Sequence record: MW822011
Direction: 5' to 3' (one strand)
From: Shigella phage TB004
DNA: 64,000 nucleotides
Shown: positions 2,188 through 47,408 of the stretch, one piece after another
Layout of the letters: each line of letters begins with the position of its first letter
Numbering within the stretch: the first letter of the stretch is position 1
Program-made: the position numbers and the translations under genes
The notes under the pieces: generated by a model
What the model saw: the letters and a program-made list of their open reading frames with translations, nothing else
Databases searched by the model: none
What the model was told of the DNA's origin: nothing

Positions 2188-2811
2188 ATGATTATTAATC
2201 TTGCAGATGTTGAACAATTATCTATAAAAGCTGAAAGTGTTGATTTTCAATATGATATGTATAAAAAGGTCTGTGAAAAATTTACTGACTTTGAACAGTC
2301 AGTTCTTTGGCAATGTATGGAAGCCAAAAAGAATGAAGCTCTTCATCGGCAGTTGAATAAAATCATTAAAAAGCATTTAACTGAATCACCTTATCAGCTA
2401 TATCGTGGTATATCAAAATCGACAAAAGAACTCATTAAAGATTTACAAGTCGGAGAAGTGTTTTCAACAAACAGAGTAGATTCATTTACTACTAGTTTGC
2501 ATACAGCGTGTTCTTTTTCTTATGCTGAATATTTCACTGACACAATACTTCGCTTAAAAACTGATAAAGCTTTTAATTACTCTGACCATATCAGCGATAT
2601 TATACTTTCTTCTCCTAATACTGAGTTTAAGTATACATATGAAGATACTGATGGATTAGATTCAGAACGTACTGATAACTTAATGATGATTGTGCGTGAA
2701 CAAGAATGGATGATTCCAATTGGAAAGTATAAAATAACTTCTATTTCAAAAGAAAAATTACACGATTCGTTTGGAACATTTAAAGTGTATGATATTGAGG
2801 TAGTTGAATGA
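2188..2811 (+). CDS. modB: ADP-ribosyltransferase ModB (207 aa)
   Basis: R-S-E ART motifs (YRG ... FTTS ... REQEWMIP); length and position match T4 modB. Confidence 0.8.
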   Translation: MIINLADVEQLSIKAESVDFQYDMYKKVCEKFTDFEQSVLWQCMEAKKNEALHRQLNKIIKKHLTESPYQLYRGISKSTKELIKDLQVGEVFSTNRVDSFTTSLHTACSFSYAEYFTDTILRLKTDKAFNYSDHISDIILSSPNTEFKYTYEDTDGLDSERTDNLMMIVREQEWMIPIGKYKITSISKEKLHDSFGTFKVYDIEVVE

Positions 2812-3410
2812 AATATTCAGCAATGCAATTAAAAGATTTTAAAATCAAATCAATGGATGCATCGGTGCGTGCTTCTATTCGTGAAGAATTACTTTCTGAA
2901 GGATTTAATTTATCTGAAATTGAACTTTTAATTCATTGTATTACTAATAAGCCAGACGATCATTCTTGGTTAAATGAAATAATCAAATCTCGTTTGGTTC
3001 CAAACGATAAACCTCTTTGGAGAGGTGTTCCAGTTGAGACTAAGCAGGTGTTAAATCAAGGAATTGATATTATTACATTTGATAAAGTAGTATCAGCTTC
3101 ATATGATAAAAATATAGCTCTGCATTTTGCTTCTGGATTAGAATACAACACACAAGTTATTTTTGAATTCAAAGCTCCTATGGTATTTAATTTCCAGGAG
3201 TATGCTATAAAAGCTCTACGTTGTAAAGAATATAGTCCGACTTTTAAGTTTCCGGATAGTCATCGCTATCGTAATATGGAATTAGTTTCAGATGAACAAG
3301 AAGTAATGATACCAGCTGGAAGTGTATTTAGAATTGCGGATAGATATGAATATAAAAAGTATTCAACATACACTATCTATACTCTTGATTTTGAAGGATT
3401 TAATCTATAA
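2808..3410 (+). CDS. modA: ADP-ribosyltransferase ModA (200 aa)
   Basis: paralog of the upstream ORF (WRG ... SAS ... DEQEVMIP); length matches T4 modA; ATGA overlap. Confidence 0.8.
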   Translation: MKYSAMQLKDFKIKSMDASVRASIREELLSEGFNLSEIELLIHCITNKPDDHSWLNEIIKSRLVPNDKPLWRGVPVETKQVLNQGIDIITFDKVVSASYDKNIALHFASGLEYNTQVIFEFKAPMVFNFQEYAIKALRCKEYSPTFKFPDSHRYRNMELVSDEQEVMIPAGSVFRIADRYEYKKYSTYTIYTLDFEGFNL

Positions 3411-3466
3411 TGGAAGGACTTAGATTCATTATACCATGAAAGTTTTAAAGCATTTTTCATAAAGTT

Positions 3467-3496
3467 GTTTACAAGCTGAAGTAAAAATGTTATAGT
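3467..3496 (+). promoter_or_regulatory. T4-type early promoter (GTTTAC ... TGTTATAGT)
   Basis: aaagttgtttac then 18 bp then tatagt. Confidence 0.45.
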
Positions 3497-3526
3497 ATAA
3501 GTAGTTAACCCGTCCGTGAGAAAAAT

Positions 3527-4273
3527 ATGAAACTGTCTAAAAATCAAATTCGTAAAATTACACGTCGTTTAGAGCACACCCAGGCATCTGCCAAAAGACG
3601 TTCTAAAGATTTTAACTTAGACTTCAATTACATTAAGAACATTTTAGATCAGAAAGTTTGCGCTTACTCGGGAGAACCTTTTGATAATCGTATTGAAGGA
3701 GAGAAATTATCATTAGAACGTTTTGATAATAACGTTGGATACATTAAAGGGAATGTTATTGCAGTAAAGAAAAAGTATAATACATTTCGTTCTGATTATA
3801 CTTTAGAAGAGTTGATTGAAAAGCGTGATTTATTTGCTTTGCGAATTGGTCGTTCATCTGCGAAAAAAGTTCATAAACTAAATTTAGATGAAAAGAAATG
3901 GGCTAAAATCAAAAAGACTTATAATCAAATTAAAGCTATACAGAAAAAACGTGAAAACCGAATTGAGCACATTTCTCAGCTTTCTAAATCAAAACAAACT
4001 TCTGACGTTAAGCTAACGATTATAGCACTCAAAGCTCGTATTGATGGTTCTCGTATAGCAGAAGGCGCTGAAGTTGTTAAATTGAACGTTCTTCTTAAAG
4101 GCTCGGATTGGAAAACTGTGAAAAAGTTGTCAGAAGCAGAAATGCAATATGATATGTGTGATAAAATTATTCAAGGTGTAGAGCGGTATCAAAATTTGTC
4201 TTTTATTGATAAACTTAAACTGAAAAGAGGATACCCACTAAATTGTTCAATTTTTAAACTTATCCGAGGATAA
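3527..4273 (+). CDS. srd: Srd-like early protein (248 aa), assigned by synteny between modA and dda
   Basis: ORF track; position and size correspond to T4 srd; basic, lysine-rich. Confidence 0.4.
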   Translation: MKLSKNQIRKITRRLEHTQASAKRRSKDFNLDFNYIKNILDQKVCAYSGEPFDNRIEGEKLSLERFDNNVGYIKGNVIAVKKKYNTFRSDYTLEELIEKRDLFALRIGRSSAKKVHKLNLDEKKWAKIKKTYNQIKAIQKKRENRIEHISQLSKSKQTSDVKLTIIALKARIDGSRIAEGAEVVKLNVLLKGSDWKTVKKLSEAEMQYDMCDKIIQGVERYQNLSFIDKLKLKRGYPLNCSIFKLIRG

Positions 4274-4586: not shown

Positions 4587-5902
4587 CATTTGATGATTTG
4601 ACCGAAGGCCAGAAAAATGCCTTTAACATCGTTATGAGGGCTATTAAAGAAAAGAAACATCATGTAACTATTAATGGACCTGCTGGTACTGGTAAAACTA
4701 CTCTTACTAAGTTCATCATTGAAGCCTTAATATCTACGGGCGAAACTGGCATTATTTTAGCAGCTCCTACTCATGCAGCTAAAAAGATTCTTTCAAAACT
4801 GTCAGGGAAAGAAGCGAGTACTATTCACAGTATTCTTAAAATTAACCCAGTAACATACGAAGAAAACGTTCTTTTTGAACAAAAAGAAGTACCGGATTTA
4901 GCTAAATGCAGAGTATTAATCTGCGACGAAGTGTCAATGTATGATAGAAAGCTATTTAAAATTCTGCTTTCAACTATCCCGCCGTGGTGTACTATAATTG
5001 GAATAGGCGATAATAAGCAAATTAGACCTGTTGACCCAGGAGAAAATACTGCTTATATCAGTCCATTCTTTACGCATAAAGATTTTTATCAGTGTGAACT
5101 CACTGAAGTTAAACGCAGTAATGCTCCTATTATTGATGTAGCTACTGATGTTCGTAGCGGTAAGTGGATTTATAATAAAATTGTTGACGGACATGGAGTA
5201 CGTGGATTTACTGGTGATACTGCTTTACGCGATTTTATGGTAAATTATTTTTCAATCGTAAAATCACTAGATGATTTGTTTGAAAATCGTGTAATGGCAT
5301 TTACGAATAAATCTGTTGATAAGTTAAATAGCATTATTCGTAAAAAGATTTTTGAAACTGATAAAGATTTTATTGTCGGTGAAATTATTGTAATGCAGGA
5401 ACCATTAATTAAAACATATAAAATTGATGGAAAGCCTGTGTCAGAAATTATTTTTAATAACGGACAATTAGTTCGTATCATAGAAGCAGAGTATACATCA
5501 ACATTTGTTAAAGCTCGTGGTGTTTCTGGAGAATATCTAATTCGTCATTGGGATTTAACAGTAGAAACTTACGGCGATGATGAATATTATCGTGAAAAGA
5601 TTAAAATAATTTCATCTGATGAAGAGCTGTATAAGTTTAACTTATTTTTAGGTAAAACGGCAGAAACTTATAAAAATTGGAATAAAGGTGGAAAAGCCCC
5701 GTGGAGTGATTTTTGGGATGCTAAATCACAGTTTAGTAAAGTGAAAGCACTTCCTGCATCAACATTCCATAAAGCTCAGGGCATGTCTGTAGATCGTGCT
5801 TTCATTTATACACCTTGTATTCATTATGCAGATGCTGAATTAGCTCAGCAGCTTCTTTATGTTGGTGTCACTCGTGGTCGTTATGATGTATTTTATGTAT
5901 GA
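4583..5902 (+). CDS. dda: Dda DNA helicase (439 aa)
   Basis: Walker A GPAGTGKT, SF1 helicase motifs; length equals T4 Dda. Confidence 0.95.
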   Translation: MTFDDLTEGQKNAFNIVMRAIKEKKHHVTINGPAGTGKTTLTKFIIEALISTGETGIILAAPTHAAKKILSKLSGKEASTIHSILKINPVTYEENVLFEQKEVPDLAKCRVLICDEVSMYDRKLFKILLSTIPPWCTIIGIGDNKQIRPVDPGENTAYISPFFTHKDFYQCELTEVKRSNAPIIDVATDVRSGKWIYNKIVDGHGVRGFTGDTALRDFMVNYFSIVKSLDDLFENRVMAFTNKSVDKLNSIIRKKIFETDKDFIVGEIIVMQEPLIKTYKIDGKPVSEIIFNNGQLVRIIEAEYTSTFVKARGVSGEYLIRHWDLTVETYGDDEYYREKIKIISSDEELYKFNLFLGKTAETYKNWNKGGKAPWSDFWDAKSQFSKVKALPASTFHKAQGMSVDRAFIYTPCIHYADAELAQQLLYVGVTRGRYDVFYV

Positions 5903-5923
5903 TTAAATTTGAGGAAGCTATTC

Positions 5924-6169
5924 GTGGAAATAACTAAAGATCAGTTTTATCTTCTTCAAGATAAAGTAAGCGAAATTTATGAAATAGCTTATAGCAAAAA
6001 TCGCAAAAATGTGAAAACTGAATCAGGCAAGTTAATGCTTCAATTGGAAGAAATTGAACGAGATTTGATTGCGTTAGAATTCTTTTGTGGTGAAGTAAAA
6101 ACTGTTACAATCAGTGATTATGTTTTAGGTGAAATTAGCTATCTTTATAAGGCGGTTATTAATGATTGA
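5924..6169 (+). CDS. hypothetical protein at the dexA.2 position (GTG start)
   Basis: ORF track frame 5909..6169; GTG at 5924 after gaggaag SD; paralog of the next ORF. Confidence 0.45.
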   Translation: MEITKDQFYLLQDKVSEIYEIAYSKNRKNVKTESGKLMLQLEEIERDLIALEFFCGEVKTVTISDYVLGEISYLYKAVIND

Positions 6170-6404
6170 ATTAAGTTGGTGGCAGTTTAAATCTCTTATG
6201 ACAAATGTTAAAGATGTCATTGAAGAAAATCCAGGTCCTGAAAATATTACTATTCGCGAAAAAGCTTCAAAGATAGTATACAGTCTTGAAGAGATACAAA
6301 AAGACATTGAATCTGTGGCAAAATTTATTGATGAGCCCATTAATAAAGTTTATATTCAAGACTATACTGTAGGTCAAATTCGCGATTTAGCAAGGAAAAT
6401 TTAA
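6162..6404 (+). CDS. hypothetical protein at the dexA.1 position (80 aa)
   Basis: ATG at 6162 overlapping upstream stop; similar to previous ORF (LEEIxxDl ... yvxDYtvGqI). Confidence 0.45.
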   Translation: MIELSWWQFKSLMTNVKDVIEENPGPENITIREKASKIVYSLEEIQKDIESVAKFIDEPINKVYIQDYTVGQIRDLARKI

Positions 6405-7087
6405 TGTTTGATTTTATTATAGATTTTGAAACAATGGGAAGCGGTGAAAAGGCAGCTGTTATTGATTTGGCTGTTATTGCCTTTGACCCTAATCCAGAAG
6501 TCGTTGAAACATTCGATGAATTAGTTTCACGCGGCATTAAAATCAAATTTGATTTAAAAAGCCAAAAAGGACATCGTCTTTTTACTAAAAGCACTATTGA
6601 ATGGTGGAAGAACCAATCTCCTGAAGCTCGAAAAAATATTGCACCATCAGATGAAGATGTGAGCACTATCGATGGTATTGCAAAATTTAATGATTACATC
6701 AATGCACACAATATCGATCCTTGGAAATCTCAAGGTTGGTGCCGTGGAATGTCGTTTGATTTTCCAATTTTAGTCGATCTCATTCGTGATATTCAACGCC
6801 TTAATGGTGTATCTGAGAATGAGCTTGACACATTTAAGTTAGAACCATGTAAATTCTGGAATCAGCGTGATATTCGTACCAGAATTGAAGCACTTCTACT
6901 TGTTCGTGATATGACAACGTGTCCCCTTCCAAAGGGAACTTTAGATGGATTTGTTGCGCATAATTCTATTCATGACTGTGCGAAAGACATCCTGATGATG
7001 AAGTATGCTTTGCGATATGCTATGGGTCTTGAAGATGCTCCATCAGAGGAAGAGTGCGATCCTCTGTCTCTTCCAACAAAACGATAA
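6404..7087 (+). CDS. dexA: exonuclease A, DexA (227 aa)
   Basis: N-terminus MFDFIIDFETMG; length equals T4 DexA; DEDD-type exonuclease. Confidence 0.9.
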   Translation: MFDFIIDFETMGSGEKAAVIDLAVIAFDPNPEVVETFDELVSRGIKIKFDLKSQKGHRLFTKSTIEWWKNQSPEARKNIAPSDEDVSTIDGIAKFNDYINAHNIDPWKSQGWCRGMSFDFPILVDLIRDIQRLNGVSENELDTFKLEPCKFWNQRDIRTRIEALLLVRDMTTCPLPKGTLDGFVAHNSIHDCAKDILMMKYALRYAMGLEDAPSEEECDPLSLPTKR

Positions 7088-38144: not shown

Positions 38145-38971
<827 letters not shown>

Positions 38972-38990
38972 AATAACATTGGCGGAAAAT

Positions 38991-39341
38991 ATGAATTTTA
39001 ATTATTACCCTATTCTATTAGAAAAAGACGCGAAACAACCAAAATGGCAGGGTCCTCAGTTTATTAAAGGCGTCTATCAATTAGTAGTTCCCAAAGATAA
39101 GATTTATAGCAGCAGTTATTGCACTGAATCCGCTTGCAGTATTTTCGGTAATAGTTCTCCGTATTGGAATTTTGATATAAAGCTGGATAGAAATATCGAT
39201 ATTTGGTTGAAAGCTATGGATATTGGCAATATCACGTTTGATGAGAATAATTACCATATTATTGGTCGCTTTTCCAAGCGTGGTAAAGAATTGTATTTTA
39301 CGCCTGAAATTGAAAGAAAATTTGATGCTAAACCGTATTGA
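38991..39341 (+). CDS. hypothetical protein (116 aa)
   Basis: ORF track frame 38979..39341; ATG at 38991. Confidence 0.45.
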   Translation: MNFNYYPILLEKDAKQPKWQGPQFIKGVYQLVVPKDKIYSSSYCTESACSIFGNSSPYWNFDIKLDRNIDIWLKAMDIGNITFDENNYHIIGRFSKRGKELYFTPEIERKFDAKPY

Positions 39342-39385
39342 TTATTAGCTTCATAAAATGTATTATAATTTATATAAGGTACTAA

Positions 39386-39934
39386 ATGAAACAATACCAA
39401 GATTTAATTAAAGACATTTTTGAAAATGGCTATGAAACTGATGACCGAACAGGCACAGGAACAATTGCTTTGTTCGGTACTAAATTACGCTGGGATTTAA
39501 CTAAAGGTTTTCCTGCAGTAACGACTAAGAAGCTCGCCTGGAAAGCTTGCATTGCTGAGCTAATATGGTTTTTATCGGGAAGTACTAACGTAAATGATTT
39601 ACGTCAACGTACTCATGGATCTTTAATTGCAGGAAAAACAATTTGGGATGAAAACTACGAAAACCAGGCCAAAGACTTAGGTTATCATAGCGGTGAACTT
39701 GGTCCAATTTACGGAAAACAGTGGCGTGATTTTGGTGGTGTAGATCAAATTGTAGAAGTTGTTAATCGTATTAAAACATTTCCCAATGATAGACGTCAAA
39801 TTGTGTCGGCATGGAATCCAGCTGAACTCAAGCAGATGGCATTACCGCCTTGTCATATGTTCTATCAGTTTAATGTGCGTAATGGTCATCTTGATTTACA
39901 ATGGTACCAGAGAAGTGTTGATGTTTTCTTAGGT
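39386..39934 (+). CDS. td: thymidylate synthase, exon 1
   Basis: MKQYQDLIKDIFENGYETDDRTGTG ... QWYQRSVDVFLG, then in-frame stop at the intron 5' end. Confidence 0.95.
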
Positions 39935-40950
39935 TAATTTAGGCCTAGGTATAAGGTGACTTATACTTGTAATCTATCTAAACGGGGGACCTCTCTAGTA
40001 GACAATCCCGTGCTAAATTGTAGGACTACCCTTTAATAAATACTTCTATATAAAAAGAGGTGTTTATGAAAAGCGGAATTTATCAGATTAAAAACACTTT
40101 AAACGGTAAAGTGTATGTTGGAAGTGCTAAAGATTTTGAGAAAAGATGGAAGAGACATTTTAAAGACCTTGAAAACGGTGTTCACTCTTCTATAAAATTT
40201 CAAAGGTCTTTTAATAAACATGGTAATGTTTTTGAATGCTCTGTACTGGAAGAAATTCCATATGAGAAAGATTTGATTATTGAACGAGAAAATTTTTGGA
40301 TTAAAGAGCTAAATTCTAAAATTAATGGATATAATATTGCTGATGCGTCTTTTGGCGATGTGCTTTCAAATCATCCATTAAAAGAAGAAATTGCTAAGAA
40401 ACGAGCTGAAACTGTTAAAGCTAAGATGCTTAAACTTGGTCCTGATGGTCGGAAAGCTCTTTATGGTAAACACGGAAGTAAAAATGGCCGATGGAATCCA
40501 GAAAACCATAAGTTTTGTAAATGCGGTGTTCGCATACCGTCTTCGGCCGATACTTGTGGAAAGTGCCGAAAACGTTCAGGTGAAAATAACCCGTTCTTTA
40601 ATCACAAACATTCAGAAAAAACTAAAACTAAGCTATCTGAAAAGATGAAAGGCAAAAAGCCAGCTAACATCAAAAAGATTTCATGCGATGGGATTATTTT
40701 TGAATGTGCAGCCGATGCGGCTAGACATTTTGAAATTTCATCAGGATTAGTTACTTACCGTGTAAAATCTGATAAGTGGAATTGGTTCTACATAAATGCC
40801 TAACGACTATCCCTTTAGGGAGTAGGGTCAAGTGACTCGAAACGATAGACAACTTGCTTTAACAAGTTGGAGATATAGTCTGCTCTGCATGGTGACATGC
40901 AGCTGGATATAATTCCGGGATAAGATTAACGACCTTATCTGAACATAATG
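39935..40950 (+). mobile_element. td group I intron (1016 nt) carrying the I-TevI homing endonuclease gene
   Basis: exon 1 ends ...ttaggt; intron begins taatttaggcctaggtataaggtgacttatacttgtaatctatctaaacggg and ends ...ctgaacataatg; exon 2 resumes ctaccgttcaacatt (LPFNIASYA). Confidence 0.9.
40066..40803 (+). CDS. I-TevI: intron-encoded GIY-YIG homing endonuclease I-TevI (245 aa)
   Basis: [35 protein letters not shown]; Zn finger CKCGVRIPSSADTCGKC; C-terminal HTH. Confidence 0.95.
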   Translation: MKSGIYQIKNTLNGKVYVGSAKDFEKRWKRHFKDLENGVHSSIKFQRSFNKHGNVFECSVLEEIPYEKDLIIERENFWIKELNSKINGYNIADASFGDVLSNHPLKEEIAKKRAETVKAKMLKLGPDGRKALYGKHGSKNGRWNPENHKFCKCGVRIPSSADTCGKCRKRSGENNPFFNHKHSEKTKTKLSEKMKGKKPANIKKISCDGIIFECAADAARHFEISSGLVTYRVKSDKWNWFYINA

Positions 40951-41262
40951 CTACCGTTCAACATTGCATCATATGCTGCGTTAGTTCATATTGTAGCTAA
41001 GATGTGTAATCTTATTCCGGGAGATTTGATATTTTCTGGCGGTAATACTCATATCTATATGAATCACGTAGAACAATGTAAAGAAATTTTACGTCGTGAA
41101 CCTAAAGAGCTTTGTGAACTTGTAATAGGCGGATTACCTTATAAATTCCGCTATCTTTCTACTAAAGAACAATTGGAATACATTCTTAAACTCAGGCCTA
41201 AAGATTTCGTTCTTAAAGGTTACGAATCACACCCTTCTATTAAAGGAAAAATGGCGGTGTAA
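40951..41262 (+). CDS. td: thymidylate synthase, exon 2
   Basis: LPFNIASYAALVHIVAKMCNLIPGDLIFSGGNTHIYMNH ... KGKMAV; joined CDS is 286 aa. Confidence 0.95.
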   Translation, partial: LPFNIASYAALVHIVAKMCNLIPGDLIFSGGNTHIYMNHVEQCKEILRREPKELCELVIGGLPYKFRYLSTKEQLEYILKLRPKDFVLKGYESHPSIKGKMAV

Positions 41263-41285
41263 TTAATTATTAATTGTGAGGATAT

Positions 41286-41531
41286 ATGATTTTACGATTT
41301 AAAGATACTTCTGGTGTAGTTCTTTTTACACTTCCTAATCCAAGCGAGTTAGAAGTTCCAGGACCAGAACAGCCTATTGTCATTTATGGCAAAAAATATT
41401 ATACTCATAAAATGACTCGTGAGTATTTTGATAATAAAATTTCTACAGTTAAAACTTCTTCAGATTGTTATTATGATATTACTGTTTTAACGGAAAAACA
41501 ATATGACGAATGTAGAACTTTAGCAGTATAA
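41286..41531 (+). CDS. hypothetical protein (81 aa)
   Basis: ORF track; 3' end overlaps the convergent GIY-YIG gene by about 12 nt. Confidence 0.45.
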
Positions 41532-42251
41532 ATATGATTCCCAACAATCTAGAGCACATCTTTTAGATATAAGTTTTCTGCTTATTCCAGTTTGACGCAC
41601 AGCTTCTGCTATTGTTGGATATTCTACCCCATCTATACTTACTCTTAGATGGGGTTTCTTTTTACCTCTTTGTGAGTCAGAAATTCGTTTTCTAACTTCA
41701 TTGGTATGTGTCTGTCCATAATATGGATTATTGATGCCTTTCATATTAAGTGCAGCGTTTCTTTCTTGGAACTTTTTGCTTATTTCTATAGCACGATCTA
41801 ACCCATAGTGTTCTTCTATAGTTTTACCTTTGATATCTTTAGGTCTACCATGTTTTTGCTTAAGTTCTTCTGGTGATAATTTTGAATTATTATTTTTAAT
41901 TGCATTTGAAATTTTATTAAGGATTTCTTGCTTTCTTGGGTGATGAGATAAGGTATCCCCAAACGATGCGTCTGCTATATTATACCCATTTTCCTTTGAG
42001 TCATATTCATGTATCCAATAATTTTCACGTTCAATAATGATAGATTTTTCGTATGGAAGTTCTTCTATGATTTTACATACGAAAGCATCTTTCCCATGCT
42101 TATTATAAGAACGCTGCAGCTTTATTGAATGATGATTTCCATTATCTAAATCTTTAAAGTGTCGTTTCCATCGTTCTTCAAAATTAATTGCACTTCCTAT
42201 ATAGTGCTTATTGGTTTTAGTGTTTATAATAGCATATATTCCAGATTTCAT
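41520..42251 (-). CDS. free-standing GIY-YIG homing endonuclease, I-TevI-like catalytic domain with a different C-terminal DNA-binding region (243 aa)
   Basis: [38 protein letters not shown] ... IIERENYWI ... [12 protein letters not shown] near-colinear with I-TevI residues 1-100; C-terminus NUMOD-like ([17 protein letters not shown]) plus HTH, no Zn finger. Confidence 0.85.
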
Positions 42252-42306
42252 TATATTCTCCTATATAAAATTATATTTATATGGGGTAACTTACTACAGA
42301 GGACTT

Positions 42307-44571
42307 ATGCAATTAATTAATGTTATCAAAAGTAGTGGTGTTTCTCAGAGCTTTGACCCGCAAAAAATTATTAAAGTTTTATCTTGGGCAGCTGAAGGAA
42401 CATCTGTAGATCCTTATGAATTATATGAAAATATTAAATCATATCTCCGTGATGGAATGACCACTGATGACATTCAAACCATTGTAATTAAGGCTGCTGC
42501 GAATTCTATTTCAGTTGAAGAGCCTGATTATCAATATGTAGCTGCACGCTGTTTAATGTTCGCTCTTCGTAAGCATGTTTATGGGCAATATGAACCACGT
42601 TCATTTATTGATCATATTTCTTACTGTGTAAATGAAGGTAAATATGACCCTGAACTGCTGTCAAAATATTCAGCAGAAGAAATTACATTTTTAGAATCAA
42701 AAATTAAGCACGAGCGGGATATGGAATTTACTTATTCCGGGGCGATGCAATTAAAAGAAAAATATCTCGTTAAAGATAAAACCACTGGTCAAATTTATGA
42801 AACTCCGCAGTTTGCATTTATGACTATTGGAATGGCATTGCATCAAGATGAACCTGTTGATAGACTAAAACACGTTATTCGTTTTTATGAAGCGGTATCT
42901 ACTCGACAAATTTCATTGCCAACTCCTATTATGGCTGGTTGCCGTACTCCGACTCGACAGTTTAGTTCATGCGTTGTTATTGAAGCAGGTGATTCATTAA
43001 AGTCTATCAATAAGGCTTCCGCTTCAATTGTTGAATATATCTCCAAACGCGCTGGAATTGGCATTAACGTTGGTATGATTCGTGCCGAAGGTTCTAAGAT
43101 TGGTACAGGTGAAGTACGCCATACTGGTGTTATTCCTTTTTGGAAACATTTTCAGACTGCTGTTAAATCATGCTCACAGGGTGGAATTCGTGGCGGCGCT
43201 GCTACTGCTTATTATCCTATTTGGCATTTGGAAGTTGAAAATCTTCTCGTTTTGAAAAATAACAAAGGCGTAGAAGAAAACCGTATCCGTCATATGGATT
43301 ATGGCGTCCAGCTGAATGATTTGATGATGGAACGTTTTGGAAAGAACGACTACATTACTTTGTTCAGTCCGCATGAAATGGGTGGCGAACTTTATTATTC
43401 TTATTTTAAAGACCAAGATCGTTTCCGTGAATTATACGAAGCCGCAGAAAAAGATCCTAATATTCGTAAAAAGCGTATTAAAGCACGTGAACTGTTTGAA
43501 TTACTCATGACTGAACGTTCAGGAACAGCAAGGATTTATGTGCAGTTCATTGATAATACGAATAACTATACTCCATTTATTCGTGAAAAGGCACCTATTC
43601 GTCAGAGTAACTTGTGCTGTGAAATTGCTATTCCAACAAATGATGTGAATAGTCCTGATGCTGAAATTGGATTGTGCACGTTATCTGCATTTGTGTTGGA
43701 TAACTTCGATTGGCAAGACCAAGATAAAATTAATGAATTAGCAGAAGTTCAAGTTCGTGCTCTTGATAATCTTTTGGATTACCAAGGATATCCAGTTCCT
43801 GAAGCAGAAAAAGCTAAAAAGCGTCGAAACCTTGGCGTAGGTGTTACTAACTATGCAGCTTGGCTGGCAAGTAACTTTGCTTCTTATGAAGATGCTAACG
43901 ATTTAACACATGAACTATTTGAGAGATTACAGTATGGACTCATTAAAGCATCCATTAAGCTCGCCAAAGAAAAAGGACCTTGCGAATATTATTCAGACAC
44001 TCGTTGGTCTCGAGGCGAATTACCTATCGACTGGTACAATAAAAAGATTGACCAAATCGCAGCTCCAAAATACGTTTGTGACTGGTCGTCGCTGCGGGAA
44101 GACCTTAAGCTCTTTGGCATCCGTAATAGCACATTATCAGCACTTATGCCATGTGAGTCATCTTCCCAAGTTTCTAACAGTACAAACGGTATCGAGCCTC
44201 CACGTGGACCAGTCTCGGTTAAAGAATCAAAAGAGGGTTCCTTTAATCAAGTCGTGCCCAATATTGAACATAACATAGACCTATATGATTATACATGGAA
44301 ATTAGCTAAGAAAGGTAATAAACCTTATCTTACGCAAGTAGCTATTATGCTGAAATGGGTATGTCAATCAGCTTCAGCGAATACATATTATGACCCGCAG
44401 ATTTTTCCAAAAGGAAAGGTTCCAATGTCAATAATGATTGATGACCTTTTGTATTTTTGGTATTTTGGCGGAAAAAATTTCTATTATCATAATACCCGCG
44501 ACGGTTCTGGTACTGATGATTATGAAATAGAAACTCCAAAAGCTGAAGATTGTTCATCCTGTAAATTATGA
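42307..44571 (+). CDS. nrdA: ribonucleotide reductase alpha subunit NrdA (754 aa)
   Basis: MQLINVIKSSGVSQSFDPQKIIKVLSWAAEG; ATP-cone plus class Ia RNR motifs; length equals T4 NrdA. Confidence 0.95.
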   Translation: MQLINVIKSSGVSQSFDPQKIIKVLSWAAEGTSVDPYELYENIKSYLRDGMTTDDIQTIVIKAAANSISVEEPDYQYVAARCLMFALRKHVYGQYEPRSFIDHISYCVNEGKYDPELLSKYSAEEITFLESKIKHERDMEFTYSGAMQLKEKYLVKDKTTGQIYETPQFAFMTIGMALHQDEPVDRLKHVIRFYEAVSTRQISLPTPIMAGCRTPTRQFSSCVVIEAGDSLKSINKASASIVEYISKRAGIGINVGMIRAEGSKIGTGEVRHTGVIPFWKHFQTAVKSCSQGGIRGGAATAYYPIWHLEVENLLVLKNNKGVEENRIRHMDYGVQLNDLMMERFGKNDYITLFSPHEMGGELYYSYFKDQDRFRELYEAAEKDPNIRKKRIKARELFELLMTERSGTARIYVQFIDNTNNYTPFIREKAPIRQSNLCCEIAIPTNDVNSPDAEIGLCTLSAFVLDNFDWQDQDKINELAEVQVRALDNLLDYQGYPVPEAEKAKKRRNLGVGVTNYAAWLASNFASYEDANDLTHELFERLQYGLIKASIKLAKEKGPCEYYSDTRWSRGELPIDWYNKKIDQIAAPKYVCDWSSLREDLKLFGIRNSTLSALMPCESSSQVSNSTNGIEPPRGPVSVKESKEGSFNQVVPNIEHNIDLYDYTWKLAKKGNKPYLTQVAIMLKWVCQSASANTYYDPQIFPKGKVPMSIMIDDLLYFWYFGGKNFYYHNTRDGSGTDDYEIETPKAEDCSSCKL

Positions 44572-44622
44572 TATAATTTGACTCACGGACGAGTCACTAT
44601 CTATTAACTAAGCGGAAAATTT

Positions 44623-45792
44623 ATGAGCACAGTTTTTAATACAAATCCAGTTGATGTTTTAAAAGAACCTATGTTCTTCGGTTCAGGTCTTGGTATTGCG
44701 CGTTATGATATTCAACGGCATAGAGTATTTGAAGAACTTATTGAGAAATCTTTATCATTTTTCTGGCGTCCTGAAGAAGTAAACTTAATGATGGATGCTG
44801 CACAATTTAACAAGCTTCCTCAATATCAGCAAGATATTTTTACTAATAACCTGAAGTATCAATCACTTTTGGATAGCATTCAGGGTCGTGCACCGTCTGC
44901 TGTACTTATGTCATTAATTTCAGACCCAAGCCTTGATACATGGGTTGCTACATGGACTTTTAGTGAAACTATTCACAGTCGTTCATATACTCATATCATG
45001 CGAAATCTTTATACTGATCCATCAAAGGTATTTGATGAGATTGTATTAGATAAAGCTATCATGAAACGCGCTGAATCTATTGGTCGTTATTATGATGACG
45101 TTCTAGTTAAGACTCGTGAATATCAGAATGCGGTTGAAGATTATGAAGGAATTTTATCAGAAGGATTTCGTAAAGAAGAGTTAGGCAAAGTTGTTGAATG
45201 TACTAAACGAGCACTAATGAAATCTCTTTACCTCTGCCTGCATGTAATCAACGCATTGGAAGCTATTCGTTTTTATGTATCTTTCGCATGTACCTTTAAC
45301 TTCCATAAGAACATGGAAATCATGGAAGGTAATGCCAAGATTATGAAGTTCATTGCACGTGATGAGCAGCTTCACCTTAAAGGCACCCAATATATTATTC
45401 GTCAACTTCAATCCGGTACTGATGGCGATGAATGGGTTAAAATTGCTCAAGAGTGTGAACAAGAAGCAGTTGATATTTTCATGGAAGTTAACCGCCAAGA
45501 AAAAGATTGGGCAGTTCATTTATTTAAAGATGGCGATGTTCCTGGATTAAATACAAATAGTATGTGGAGTTTTATTGATTACTTAACTGTATCTCGTATG
45601 AAACAGTGTGGTCTTCCATGCCCAATTACCGATGCTCCGGTTAAACATCCATATCCTTGGATTCGTGAATATCTTAATTCTGATAATGTTCAATCCGCGC
45701 CACAAGAAGTAGAACTGTCATCTTACCTTGTTGCACAGATTGATAATGATGTTGATGATAAAGTTATGATGAGTTTTAAAAAATATTTTTAA
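44623..45792 (+). CDS. nrdB: ribonucleotide reductase beta subunit NrdB (389 aa), intronless
   Basis: continuous ORF with di-iron ligand motifs; no intron interruption. Confidence 0.95.
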   Translation: MSTVFNTNPVDVLKEPMFFGSGLGIARYDIQRHRVFEELIEKSLSFFWRPEEVNLMMDAAQFNKLPQYQQDIFTNNLKYQSLLDSIQGRAPSAVLMSLISDPSLDTWVATWTFSETIHSRSYTHIMRNLYTDPSKVFDEIVLDKAIMKRAESIGRYYDDVLVKTREYQNAVEDYEGILSEGFRKEELGKVVECTKRALMKSLYLCLHVINALEAIRFYVSFACTFNFHKNMEIMEGNAKIMKFIARDEQLHLKGTQYIIRQLQSGTDGDEWVKIAQECEQEAVDIFMEVNRQEKDWAVHLFKDGDVPGLNTNSMWSFIDYLTVSRMKQCGLPCPITDAPVKHPYPWIREYLNSDNVQSAPQEVELSSYLVAQIDNDVDDKVMMSFKKYF

Positions 45793-45796
45793 GGAG

Positions 45797-45819
45797 TGGG
45801 CCGCAAGGCCCATTTTATT
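45797..45819 (+). terminator. hairpin (GCAA loop) plus T-run after nrdB, abutting the denA start
   Basis: tgggccgcaaggcccattttatt. Confidence 0.45.

Positions 45820-47408
<1,589 letters not shown>

Follow-up and report, generated by a model that had tools for sequence, protein, structure and literature searches.

The window, i.e. the whole 64 000-nucleotide stretch of Shigella phage TB004 that was analysed (record MW822011), carries at its td/nrdA junction, in order, the gene for I-TevI proper (40066–40803, plus strand; 245 aa from MKSG), which lies in the td intron and served as the paralogue for comparison, td exon 2 (about 40949–41262, plus strand), a truncated nrdA.2 (41286–41531, plus strand), a second endonuclease gene on the minus strand (41520–42251, stop codon 41520–41522 counted in), and nrdA (42307–44571, plus strand). 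The second endonuclease CDS, delimited from the ORF listing, the TIGR01453 match and dN/dS, encodes a 243-aa GIY-YIG protein and is convergent with td exon 2 and divergent from nrdA, exactly as had been claimed in the preliminary description. The overlap of its 3′ end with a convergent 81-aa ORF, reported there as well, is real and comprises the last 12 nt of that ORF. Pfam (DUF5496, 4e-53), comparison with T4 NrdA.2 and the junction alignment identify the 81-aa ORF as T4 nrdA.2, shortened by the insertion and ending in a new six-residue tail, CRTLAV. The position of nrdA was mapped onto the window from the sutha annotation, and this comparison places its true ATG at 42307. The status of the td intron was judged from split td CDSs and from the T4 annotation, where td is a joined CDS with I-TevI inside. 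The second endonuclease gene is intergenic, on the strand opposite td and nrdA, and is not encoded inside the td intron as I-TevI is. An Rfam scan of 38500–46500 at the gathering threshold found no family; since the same scan missed the td intron itself, it carries little weight on intron status. The endonuclease gene is real and intact.

The 243-aa protein matched TIGR01453 (‘group I intron endonuclease’) over residues 2–240 with 130.5 bits against a cut-off of 56.05, and BLASTP aligned it with the I-TevI of the window over its full length at 45% identity (E = 3e-70). Identity to I-TevI by domain is 70–71% for the catalytic domain, 26% for the linker and 28–31% for the C-terminal part. The GIY-YIG catalytic domain (residues 1–98; 41958–42251, minus strand) was matched by Pfam (1e-15) and by PDB 1mk0/1ln0 (E = 4e-40), and its structural model superposed on 1MK0 with a TM score of 0.98 and an rmsd of 0.6 Å. 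All of the motifs quoted for this domain in the preliminary description are there: GIY at residues 4–6, YIG at 17–19, RWKRHFKDL at 27–35, ERENYWI at 75–81 and a fifth at 88–99. The catalytic residues Y6, Y17, R27, H31, H40, E76 and N91 are present, and in an alignment of 40 homologues all are invariant except Y6, which is nearly so. Alignment and structure thus agree, at ∼70% identity, that the N-terminal domain is I-TevI-like with its catalytic residues kept. In I-TevI, the helix-1 residues R30, K33, E36 and C39 are reported to tune the CNNNG preference (PMC12774661); R30 and K33 are kept in the 243-aa protein, while E36 is replaced by D and C39 by N.

[quoted passage not shown] The linker (residues 99–170; 41742–41957, minus strand), assigned from the alignment, Pfam and the secondary structure of the model, begins with a conserved ‘DASFGDT..HP’, and the zinc finger, the distance determinant of I-TevI (PMC2988022), is missing. 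I-TevI_ZnF found no match in the 243-aa protein and matched the I-TevI of the window at 1.8e-17, where the Pfam GIY-YIG and I-TevI_DNA-bd families were matched as well. The zinc finger is replaced by a Cys-free segment predicted by the model to be helical (H145–149 and H151–167). In the alignment, the CxC...CxxC cysteines occur only in intron-associated forms and are missing from 7/7 free-standing orthologues. A NUMOD3 minor-groove helix module follows (residues 171–199; 41655–41741, minus strand), with a Pfam score of 28 bits in the whole protein (2e-6; cut-off 20.4) and 39 bits on the isolated segment (7.5e-10). The C-terminal HTH module (residues 200–243; 41523–41654, minus strand) is distantly related to that of I-TevI, being matched by PDB 1i3j (E = 2.8e-7; Foldseek probability 1.00), with a score for Pfam I-TevI_DNA-bd (21–24 bits, 2e-4) that falls below the gathering score of 27. 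The C-terminal half is therefore, as had been described, different from that of I-TevI, zinc-finger-less and equipped with an HTH; the several NUMOD-like elements also proposed come down to a single detectable NUMOD3, because residues ∼125–172, the segment in the zinc finger's place, match no Pfam family. The low identity of the linker and DNA-binding modules makes a binding site different from that of I-TevI likely. Overall, the proposal of a second, free-standing I-TevI-related nuclease with a different DNA-recognition half near td/nrdA was borne out.

The gene is under strong purifying selection, with a dN/dS of 0.10–0.16 between genera and ∼0.1 in both the catalytic and the DNA-binding halves. 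By tblastn, 264 of 265 matching records span at least 80% of the protein, and the copies that were translated are full length (7/7). A scan of IMG/VR with the protein found no relatives, so the comparisons were all drawn from GenBank phage records.

A perfect T4 late-promoter consensus, TATAAATA, lies 30 nt upstream of the ATG (42274–42281, minus strand), and a Shine–Dalgarno GGAG, read from the sequence, stands 6 nt before it (42258–42261, minus strand). The perfect motif recurs at −28 to −35 in 7/7 free-standing orthologues from five genera, and EcS1, AbTZA1 and Octan share its position though their upstream DNA otherwise looks unrelated. Since TATAAATA is not over-represented in the AT-rich window (7 found versus 9.5 expected), it is solely the conserved position that carries the promoter argument; late expression of the endonuclease gene would be expected from it. 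A further TATAAATA stands on the plus strand at 41527, antisense to the endonuclease gene. A scan for sigma-70-type promoters and terminators gave promoter-like matches at background. An I-TevI-style autorepressor operator was also considered and rejected: in local alignments of the 55-nt upstream region with the empty sites of T4 and KP185, the similarity was no better than that of shuffled sequences. The 243-aa gene differs from I-TevI in having no operator-like copy of a target upstream, as it does in being intergenic, on the opposite strand and furnished with its own TATAAATA, I-TevI being intron-encoded. A weak hairpin was seen in the 5′ coding region, at 42190–42207.

The gene sits on a mobile cassette of 787 bp (41512–42298, minus strand) comprising 47 nt of upstream control region, the CDS and 8 nt downstream. 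The 300 bp of the T4-type locus that it displaces (J03968 360–659) held the last 13 codons of nrdA.2, the whole of nrdA.1 and the annotated nrdA promoter elements; in non-carriers the empty site holds nrdA.1. The left junction joins GACGAAT to GTAGAACT after 41511, the right junction lies at the nrdA ribosome-binding site GAGGACTT from 42299, and both are the same in 8/8 Tequatrovirus carriers. The right-hand homology arm of the cassette consists of the nrdA ribosome-binding site and start codon, and the first 49 bp of this nrdA flank are invariant in all 14 Tequatrovirus genomes compared.

The distribution is sporadic. The whole stretch of the cassette was found in 8 of 534 matching Tequatrovirus-type records (∼1.5%) and in 18 of 154 Klebsiella-phage records (∼12%), and diverged positional orthologues occur in three further genera; the td–nrdA interval, compared across relatives, thus shows a gene that is not universal. 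Cassettes are 90–92% identical between Tequatrovirus and Klebsiella-phage copies, against ∼70% for td and nrdA, and two of three Klebsiella copies agree fully (100%) in the upstream 45–47 nt. Among carriers, nucleotide diversity (pi) is 1.0% in the cassette and 3.4–5% in the flanks, a roughly four-fold difference, and the flanks are mosaic although the junction is common to 8/8. From these sequence comparisons, we conclude that the cassette recently crossed between Klebsiella and E. coli phage lineages. The low diversity could also be explained if the cassettes had a recent common origin and their flanks then recombined in the ordinary way, with no active homing. Carriage does not follow the state of the td intron: among carriers, td is split with I-TevI, split with a 248-bp gap, or uninterrupted, and in N2 the cassette adjoins a td intron whose I-TevI region has given way to 12 bp. 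A cassette with precise boundaries, found sporadically, nearly identical across genera and independent of the td intron state, bears the population signature of a mobile element, in line with the candidate intronless-homing element of the preliminary description. The comparison with KP179 gave 5 mismatches in nt −47 to 299 and 55 in nt 300 to 740, with dS rising from 0.018 before the catalytic/linker boundary to 0.54 after it, a pattern that indicates an intragenic recombination breakpoint at this boundary.

The candidate target was sought by comparing carriers (13 loci in five genera plus the window) with non-carriers, 22 genomes in all. nrdA.1 (DUF4326) is missing at the locus in 14/14 carriers and present in 8/8 non-carriers. 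Its last 140 bp are identical in six Tequatrovirus genomes that are otherwise 3–5% divergent, and against Klebsiella phages they show uninterrupted matches as long as 19 nt. Targeting of td or nrdA alleles of competing phages, as had been suggested, was not supported, as no td or nrdA variant tracks with carriage. For Tequatrovirus (8 carriers versus 6 non-carriers), no carrier-specific variants were found in td exon 2, nrdA.2 or the first 1340 bp of nrdA. For the Klebsiella phages (3 versus 2, a small set like the former), the diagnostic columns in td and nrdA are confined to the junction-altered last 7 nt of td and one nrdA column, which in a set of five sequences is likely due to chance. 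The td intron insertion site was likewise rejected as the target, since carriers with an uninterrupted td are indistinguishable there from non-carriers; in ECO07P5 this region has two differences from the non-carrier Nami, and CAACG is kept. Tequatrovirus carriers keep a recipient-type td 3′ end and nrdA.2, and Klebsiella-type donors lack nrdA.2; therefore, a break-initiated acquisition must have begun to the right of 41511. From these comparisons, the best-supported target lies towards the 3′ end of nrdA.1, in its conserved part, or at the junction with nrdA, a location that appears more likely than td. Because the nrdA.1 region is found in every non-carrier and deleted in every carrier, carriers would be immune by loss of the site. 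The exclusivity of nrdA.1 and the cassette could, however, merely reflect where the cassette first landed in each lineage. STP4-a lacks both the endonuclease gene and nrdA.1 at the locus.

Taken together, the observations make it probable (∼0.75) that the 243-aa protein works as a free-standing homing endonuclease, of the GIY-YIG kind and the I-TevI subfamily, and that its gene travels on a compact cassette with a late promoter of its own. Cleavage activity and the homing mechanism are expected by analogy with I-TevI, I-BmoI and the T4 Seg proteins. Late in a mixed infection, the enzyme would bind a long site as a monomer through its C-terminal NUMOD3 and HTH, and the tethered catalytic domain would then cut nearby in a co-infecting cassette-free genome. 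Recombinational repair from the carrier genome would copy in the cassette and flanking markers. With no zinc-finger ‘ruler’, distance control would probably be nearer to that of I-BmoI than to that of I-TevI. The cut would fall in the 3′ part of nrdA.1 or at the nrdA.1/nrdA junction, and carriers would be spared by its loss.

Known systems resemble the cassette to different degrees. The T4 Seg proteins (SegA–G) are free-standing GIY-YIG enzymes that act in intronless homing and marker exclusion. Like them, the 243-aa gene stands free between conserved genes, is sporadic, and belongs to a cassette that displaces local sequence and promoters (PMC2988022); a cleavage site near, rather than at, the insertion point would likewise be expected, and the antisense orientation is also found in segD (PMC2988022). 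By sequence, however, the 243-aa protein belongs to the I-TevI/TIGR01453 subfamily, the Seg proteins being compared by description only, and its gene is preceded by a late-promoter motif of its own, unlike seven free-standing endonuclease genes of T4, which are described as promoter-less cassettes (PMC2988022). T4 itself has no copy, and the enzyme is not among the 15 endonucleases listed for that phage. I-BmoI, encoded in the thyA intron of Bacillus mojavensis, lacks a zinc finger and ends in an HTH. Compared by description, it shares with the 243-aa protein a GIY-YIG domain with a NUMOD3-built DNA-binding region (PMC3664794) and an association with thymidylate synthase (PMC12774661), and differs in being intron-encoded and in having three predicted NUMOD3 repeats (PMC3664794) versus one here. 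MobE, in trans homing with I-TevIII, and F-CphI, in collaborative homing, offer a third likeness, a free-standing gene within co-conversion distance of a group I intron (PMC2790892) in a nucleotide-metabolism gene, the td intron insertion site here lying ∼570 bp away and N2 having an intron copy without the I-TevI gene. MobE, however, is an HNH enzyme, and an Endo VII catalytic motif is reported for F-CphI (PMC6083498); moreover, carriage of the present cassette is uncorrelated with the presence of the intron, and the td insertion site does not look like a target.

The same enzyme might instead target td, either at or near the conserved stretch that codes for the active site, where I-TevI and I-BmoI act, or elsewhere in td, with its own gene placed downstream of the target. 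In that case the neighbouring td intron could be carried along in trans, including copies without the I-TevI gene (trans or collaborative homing). Every relative examined sits in or right beside thymidylate synthase, which is thus a family-wide constant neighbour, unlike nrdA.1: the I-TevI, STP4-a and P0051 genes lie between two td segments, those of P0042 and P0020 stand free between the downstream end of td and unrelated genes, and the five-genus free-standing clade adjoins the td 3′ end. The td intron insertion site lies within the T4 co-conversion range of ≤2 kb (PMC2790892), and the N2 cassette stands beside a td intron with 12 bp in the place of the I-TevI region. I-TevI and I-BmoI are described as isoschizomers (PMC12774661), and a divergent C-terminal half is therefore no sufficient argument against a td site. 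However, carriers with an uninterrupted td (ECO07P5, Ozark, the Klebsiella copies, EcS1, AbTZA1 and Octan) would need protection from their own enzyme, no variant in td goes along with carriage, the insertion site of ECO07P5 is close to that of Nami, and the recipient-type td 3′ end and nrdA.2 of Tequatrovirus carriers are hard to square with a break in td repaired from a Klebsiella-type donor. We regard td as an unlikely target.

It is less likely still that the protein is a domesticated nuclease or DNA-binding regulator, no longer selfish, that might keep rival phages out, break down their DNA or that of the host, or govern nrdA expression once the nrdA.1 promoter region had been lost. Strong purifying selection would fit such a role, as would the orthologues in five genera, whose divergence is similar to or above that of NrdA (EcS1: HEG 56%, NrdA 78%) and suggests long residence. 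I-TevI doubles as an autorepressor (PMC2988022), and since the cassette removed the T4-annotated nrdA promoter elements, it may have assumed some regulatory role. Against this stand the carriage in only ∼1.5% of Tequatrovirus-type and 12% of Klebsiella-type records, the recent transfer across genera, and a cassette four times less diverse than its flanks, all signatures of a selfish element rather than of a fixed useful gene, together with an upstream region with no operator-like similarity to the empty site. Finally, an inactive relic, with an intact ORF, no natural site that it cuts and spread by ordinary recombination only, has a precedent in defunct T4 endonuclease genes that persist, e.g. 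I-TevIII (PMC2790892), but is very improbable given that all catalytic residues are kept, the copies are full length or nearly so (7/7 translated; 264/265 records at ≥80% coverage), dN/dS is ∼0.1 in both halves, and the promoter motif and Shine–Dalgarno sequence are conserved.

A literature search, with thin coverage of subscription journals, found no paper naming or characterizing a free-standing GIY-YIG enzyme at td/nrdA, and GenBank records already label the gene ‘homing endonuclease’, ‘endonuclease I-TevI’ or ‘GIY-YIG nuclease family protein’. It is another instance of the well-known free-standing homing endonucleases and no new kind of system. I-TevI, which serves as a scaffold for engineered nucleases, is the reference enzyme among GIY-YIG homing endonucleases. 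The present gene adds a natural set of close relatives that have a nearly identical catalytic domain, no zinc-finger ruler, another DNA-binding half and a breakpoint at the domain boundary; nature has in effect already set up the experiment on what determines cleavage distance and target specificity and on how swapped modules switch the target. The locus also shows cleanly how a homing cassette has lately passed between T4-like phages of Klebsiella and of E. coli, consistently taking the place of a conserved DUF4326 gene and of the promoter region of an essential neighbour. In practice, it offers a well-defined candidate on which to map cleavage sites and carry out phage crosses.

A crude tree, with the zinc-finger I-TevI nested among zinc-finger-less, td-associated relatives, is compatible with the suggestion that the gene may be an intermediate in the evolution of intron endonucleases. 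On a more speculative and rather unlikely reading, the zinc-finger-less, td-adjacent free-standing lineage would be ancestral, I-TevI would have arisen when a gene of this lineage entered the td intron and gained a zinc-finger ruler and autorepression, and the modern enzyme would target nrdA.1 and could drag the td intron in trans. If this ancestral, gene-replacing reading were true, each homing event would delete the conserved nrdA.1 and nrdA's own promoter.

The preliminary description had placed a 243-aa ORF at 41520-42251 (-), and the ORF listing bore out this position. Its orientation, convergent with td exon 2 and an 81-aa ORF and divergent from nrdA (true ATG at 42307, going by how the near-identical phage sutha is annotated), was likewise as described. 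Every motif quoted earlier was found in the ORF, which has an ATG start with GGAG ahead of it, and the 12-nt overlap with the 81-aa ORF was confirmed. The latter is T4 nrdA.2 (DUF5496), the last 13 codons of which have been swapped for a 6-residue tail as a result of the cassette insertion.

Pfam searches matched the endonuclease to GIY-YIG (1e-15) and NUMOD3 (2e-6), with I-TevI_DNA-bd below threshold. No I-TevI zinc-finger domain was found by Pfam, although the I-TevI of the window (40066-40803) matches that model at 2e-17. Aligned as a whole, the endonuclease and this I-TevI share 45% identity (E = 3e-70), unevenly spread: it is 70% over residues 1-98, 26% for the linker and 28% across the C-terminal modules. 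Residues 1-98 match crystal structures of the I-TevI catalytic domain (E = 4e-40), and an AlphaFold model based on an alignment of 40 sequences reaches a mean pLDDT of 87.6. The conservation of catalytic residues claimed earlier is borne out across 40 homologues, where Y17, R27, H31, H40, E76 and N91 are invariant and Y6 nearly so. The account of the C-terminal half, with no zinc finger but NUMOD-like and helix-turn-helix elements, holds for the missing zinc finger and the presence of NUMOD3; the stretch replacing the zinc finger matched no Pfam family, so only one NUMOD3 (residues 171-199) is detectable. A dN/dS of 0.10-0.16 in both halves, between E. coli-phage and Klebsiella-phage copies, indicates that the nuclease and DNA-binding parts are both maintained.

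NCBIfam assigns the protein to TIGR01453 ('group I intron endonuclease'), for which it scores 130 bits and the cut-off is 56, although here it lies outside any intron. Its sequence puts it in the I-TevI subfamily; it has neither the zinc finger nor the intron residence of I-TevI, and is therefore not I-TevI. I-BmoI also lacks a zinc finger. The zinc-finger-less, NUMOD3-based design is closer to that enzyme, whose NUMOD3 repeats are described in PMC3664794. By analogy, the predicted enzyme would work in the same way as the Seg-type free-standing GIY-YIG homing endonucleases. A T4 review lists no endonuclease at the td-nrdA locus (PMC2988022), and no characterization was found in the literature covered, from which most subscription-journal papers were missing; public records already carry the generic annotation of homing endonuclease. 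The gene encodes an uncharacterized enzyme of known type, correctly described at the outset.

The window genome is a Tequatrovirus (T4-like), and its closest record is sutha (99.3% identity over the stretch compared). The whole of this stretch was present in only 8 of 534 matching records, representing seven distinct phages, one of them under two accessions. The other records match the flanks only and, as in T4, have nrdA.2 and nrdA.1 (DUF4326) in the interval. The left junction follows 41511 (GACGAAT, then GTAGAACT), the right one falls at the ribosome-binding site of nrdA (GAGGACTT, starting at 42299), and both are the same in all eight carrier records. Thus, a 787-bp cassette (41512-42298) stands in place of 300 bp of the T4-type locus, for which T4 record J03968 annotates the late promoter of nrdA along with two stem-loops and -35/-10 signals. 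Diversity (pi) among carriers is about four times lower in the cassette (1.0%) than in nrdA.2 and nrdA (3.4-5%), and the carrier flanks are mosaics not distinguishable from those of non-carriers. Among the carrier loci compared, carriage is independent of the td intron, which is present with I-TevI in the window, sutha, RPN226 and LH2, present without the I-TevI gene in N2, and missing from the uninterrupted td of ECO07P5 and Ozark.

In T4-like phages of Klebsiella (Jiaodavirus), the same gene lies directly between an uninterrupted td and nrdA. It is present in 18 of 154 matching records; at the corresponding place, the non-carriers that were examined contain an nrdA.1 homologue together with a 68-aa ORF. 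The gene is 90-92% identical in DNA between the window and three Klebsiella copies, and the 45-47 nt upstream of it are 100% identical to two of the three, whereas td and nrdA, the essential genes adjoining it, reach only about 70% identity. This comparison provides strong evidence for recent lateral transfer of the gene between E. coli and Klebsiella phages. Mismatches to the KP179 copy are uneven, 5 between nt -47 and 299 but 55 between nt 300 and 740 (dS 0.018 versus 0.54), indicating a recombination breakpoint at the catalytic-domain/linker boundary. With distribution, junctions, diversity and cross-genus identity all in agreement, the earlier reading of the gene as a mobile element is well supported. 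Of use to homing-endonuclease specialists are the natural zinc-finger-less variant of I-TevI, its domain-boundary recombination, its recent transfer across genera, and the fact that a conserved gene is consistently replaced together with a promoter region. KP179 and PKO111 have about 245 bp extra between cassette and nrdA (about 3790-4020 of the KP179 locus), in which inspection by eye found a small unannotated ORF starting ATGAACAAAGAT (MNKDITAV...), unrelated to nrdA.1. A 760-nt contig encodes a partial protein 86% identical to the endonuclease and deposited as 'GIY-YIG nuclease family protein, partial [Xanthomonas campestris]'; the contig is more likely to be phage DNA that entered a bacterial assembly than to carry a true bacterial gene.

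The best candidate for the target is nrdA.1, which is missing from each of the 13 carrier loci compared, spread over five genera, and from anywhere in the window, and present in 8/8 non-carrier loci. In many T4-like phages, Acinetobacter phages among them, its place is immediately upstream of nrdA. Six Tequatrovirus genomes that elsewhere differ by 3-5% agree completely over its final 140 bp, which also have identical blocks of up to 19 nt in common with Klebsiella phages. Tequatrovirus carriers retain their own nrdA.2, which Klebsiella-type donors lack, so that any double-strand break starting the acquisition would have fallen to the right of 41511. Because nrdA.1 separates carriers from non-carriers, has a conserved 3' end and lies on the required side of 41511, a target in its 3' part or across the nrdA.1/nrdA junction is favoured by these comparisons. 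Carriers would then be immune through loss of the site.

A target in td is unlikely. The main argument for it, and against nrdA.1, is that thymidylate synthase is the constant neighbour of the gene family-wide: one zinc-finger-less homologue (P0051) lies between two td fragments, and two others (P0042 and P0020) are free-standing genes that closely follow td and have unrelated neighbours on their far side. Against a td target, no td variant tracks carriage, and at the intron insertion site the carriers with uninterrupted td resemble non-carriers, ECO07P5 keeping CAACG there. More generally, the proposal that td or nrdA alleles are targeted was not supported: td exon 2, nrdA.2 and the initial 1340 bp of nrdA contained no carriage-linked variant, and the only ones in Klebsiella td and nrdA were the final 7 nt of td, altered by the junction, and a single isolated column in nrdA.

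More distant homologues, likewise located between td and nrdA and antisense to both, occur in three further genera: in Kagamiyamavirus EcS1 (57% identity) and in the Acinetobacter phages AbTZA1 (Hadassahvirus, 51%) and Octan (Lazarusvirus, 47%). These three have no zinc finger, which is present in all the forms associated with an intron (those of T4, the window and Salmonella phage STP4-a). In a crude neighbour-joining tree without bootstrap, the zinc-finger I-TevI clade falls within the spread of zinc-finger-less, td-associated relatives, a topology compatible with free-standing forms being older than the intron-borne form. A perfect TATAAATA, the T4 late-promoter consensus, is found 28-35 nt upstream of the start codon in 7/7 free-standing orthologues, the upstream DNA of the distant ones otherwise looking unrelated. 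The motif alone is not enriched in the AT-rich window; its positional conservation supports a dedicated late promoter, on which the gene probably depends, since its neighbours run the opposite way. A second perfect copy at 41527-41534 (+), at the extreme left of the cassette and overlapping the truncated nrdA.2 stop codon, is also present in the Klebsiella copies. It forms an inverted pair with that at 42274-42281 (-) at the cassette ends and points antisense through the endonuclease gene towards nrdA. It could substitute for the deleted nrdA late promoter (J03968 393-406) or be a source of late antisense RNA. About 45-60 nt inside the coding region is a weak terminator-like hairpin (42190-42207, both strands; 5-bp stem, 8-nt loop, T-rich tail); T4 mobE and segF are reported to have intrinsic terminators in their 5' coding regions (PMC2988022).

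The td-nrdA-nrdB region is a hotspot of different homing endonuclease genes, in combinations that vary by phage. The td introns of the Tequatrovirus phages N2 (3001-3248 of its locus) and 236Ecol005PP (2501-2748) cleanly lack the I-TevI gene, with 12 bp in place of 774 bp (window 40019-40792). N2 has the free-standing cassette and 236Ecol005PP does not, and the pair offers a natural test case for mobilization of the td intron in trans. A third GIY-YIG gene within 6 kb, a 144-aa ORF just after nrdB (45796-46230 (+), Pfam GIY-YIG 6.7e-6), is located where related phages carry the annotation denA/endonuclease II. By the ORF listing, nrdB (44623-45792) is uninterrupted in the window and no mobE lies between nrdA and nrdB. 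An HNH or 'mobile endonuclease' gene splits nrdA into two CDSs in RPN226 (6087-6797 of its locus), 236Ecol005PP (5100-5810) and IME537 (5602-6312), and N2 has a 'Hef-like homing endonuclease' after nrdA. The uninterrupted td of Ozark (2646-3506 of its locus) differs at 181-195 of 861 positions (about 21-23%) from five other Tequatrovirus td genes, which differ among themselves at 28-66; alignments of its nrdA.2 and nrdA flanks gave no matching divergence, and this td is apparently a replacement that came from a distant source. The frd-td interval is another variable slot beside td, holding a 120-aa ORF with a TTG start in the window (38979-39341 (+)) and various small CDSs (207 bp, 315 bp, 348-360 bp) in related phages.
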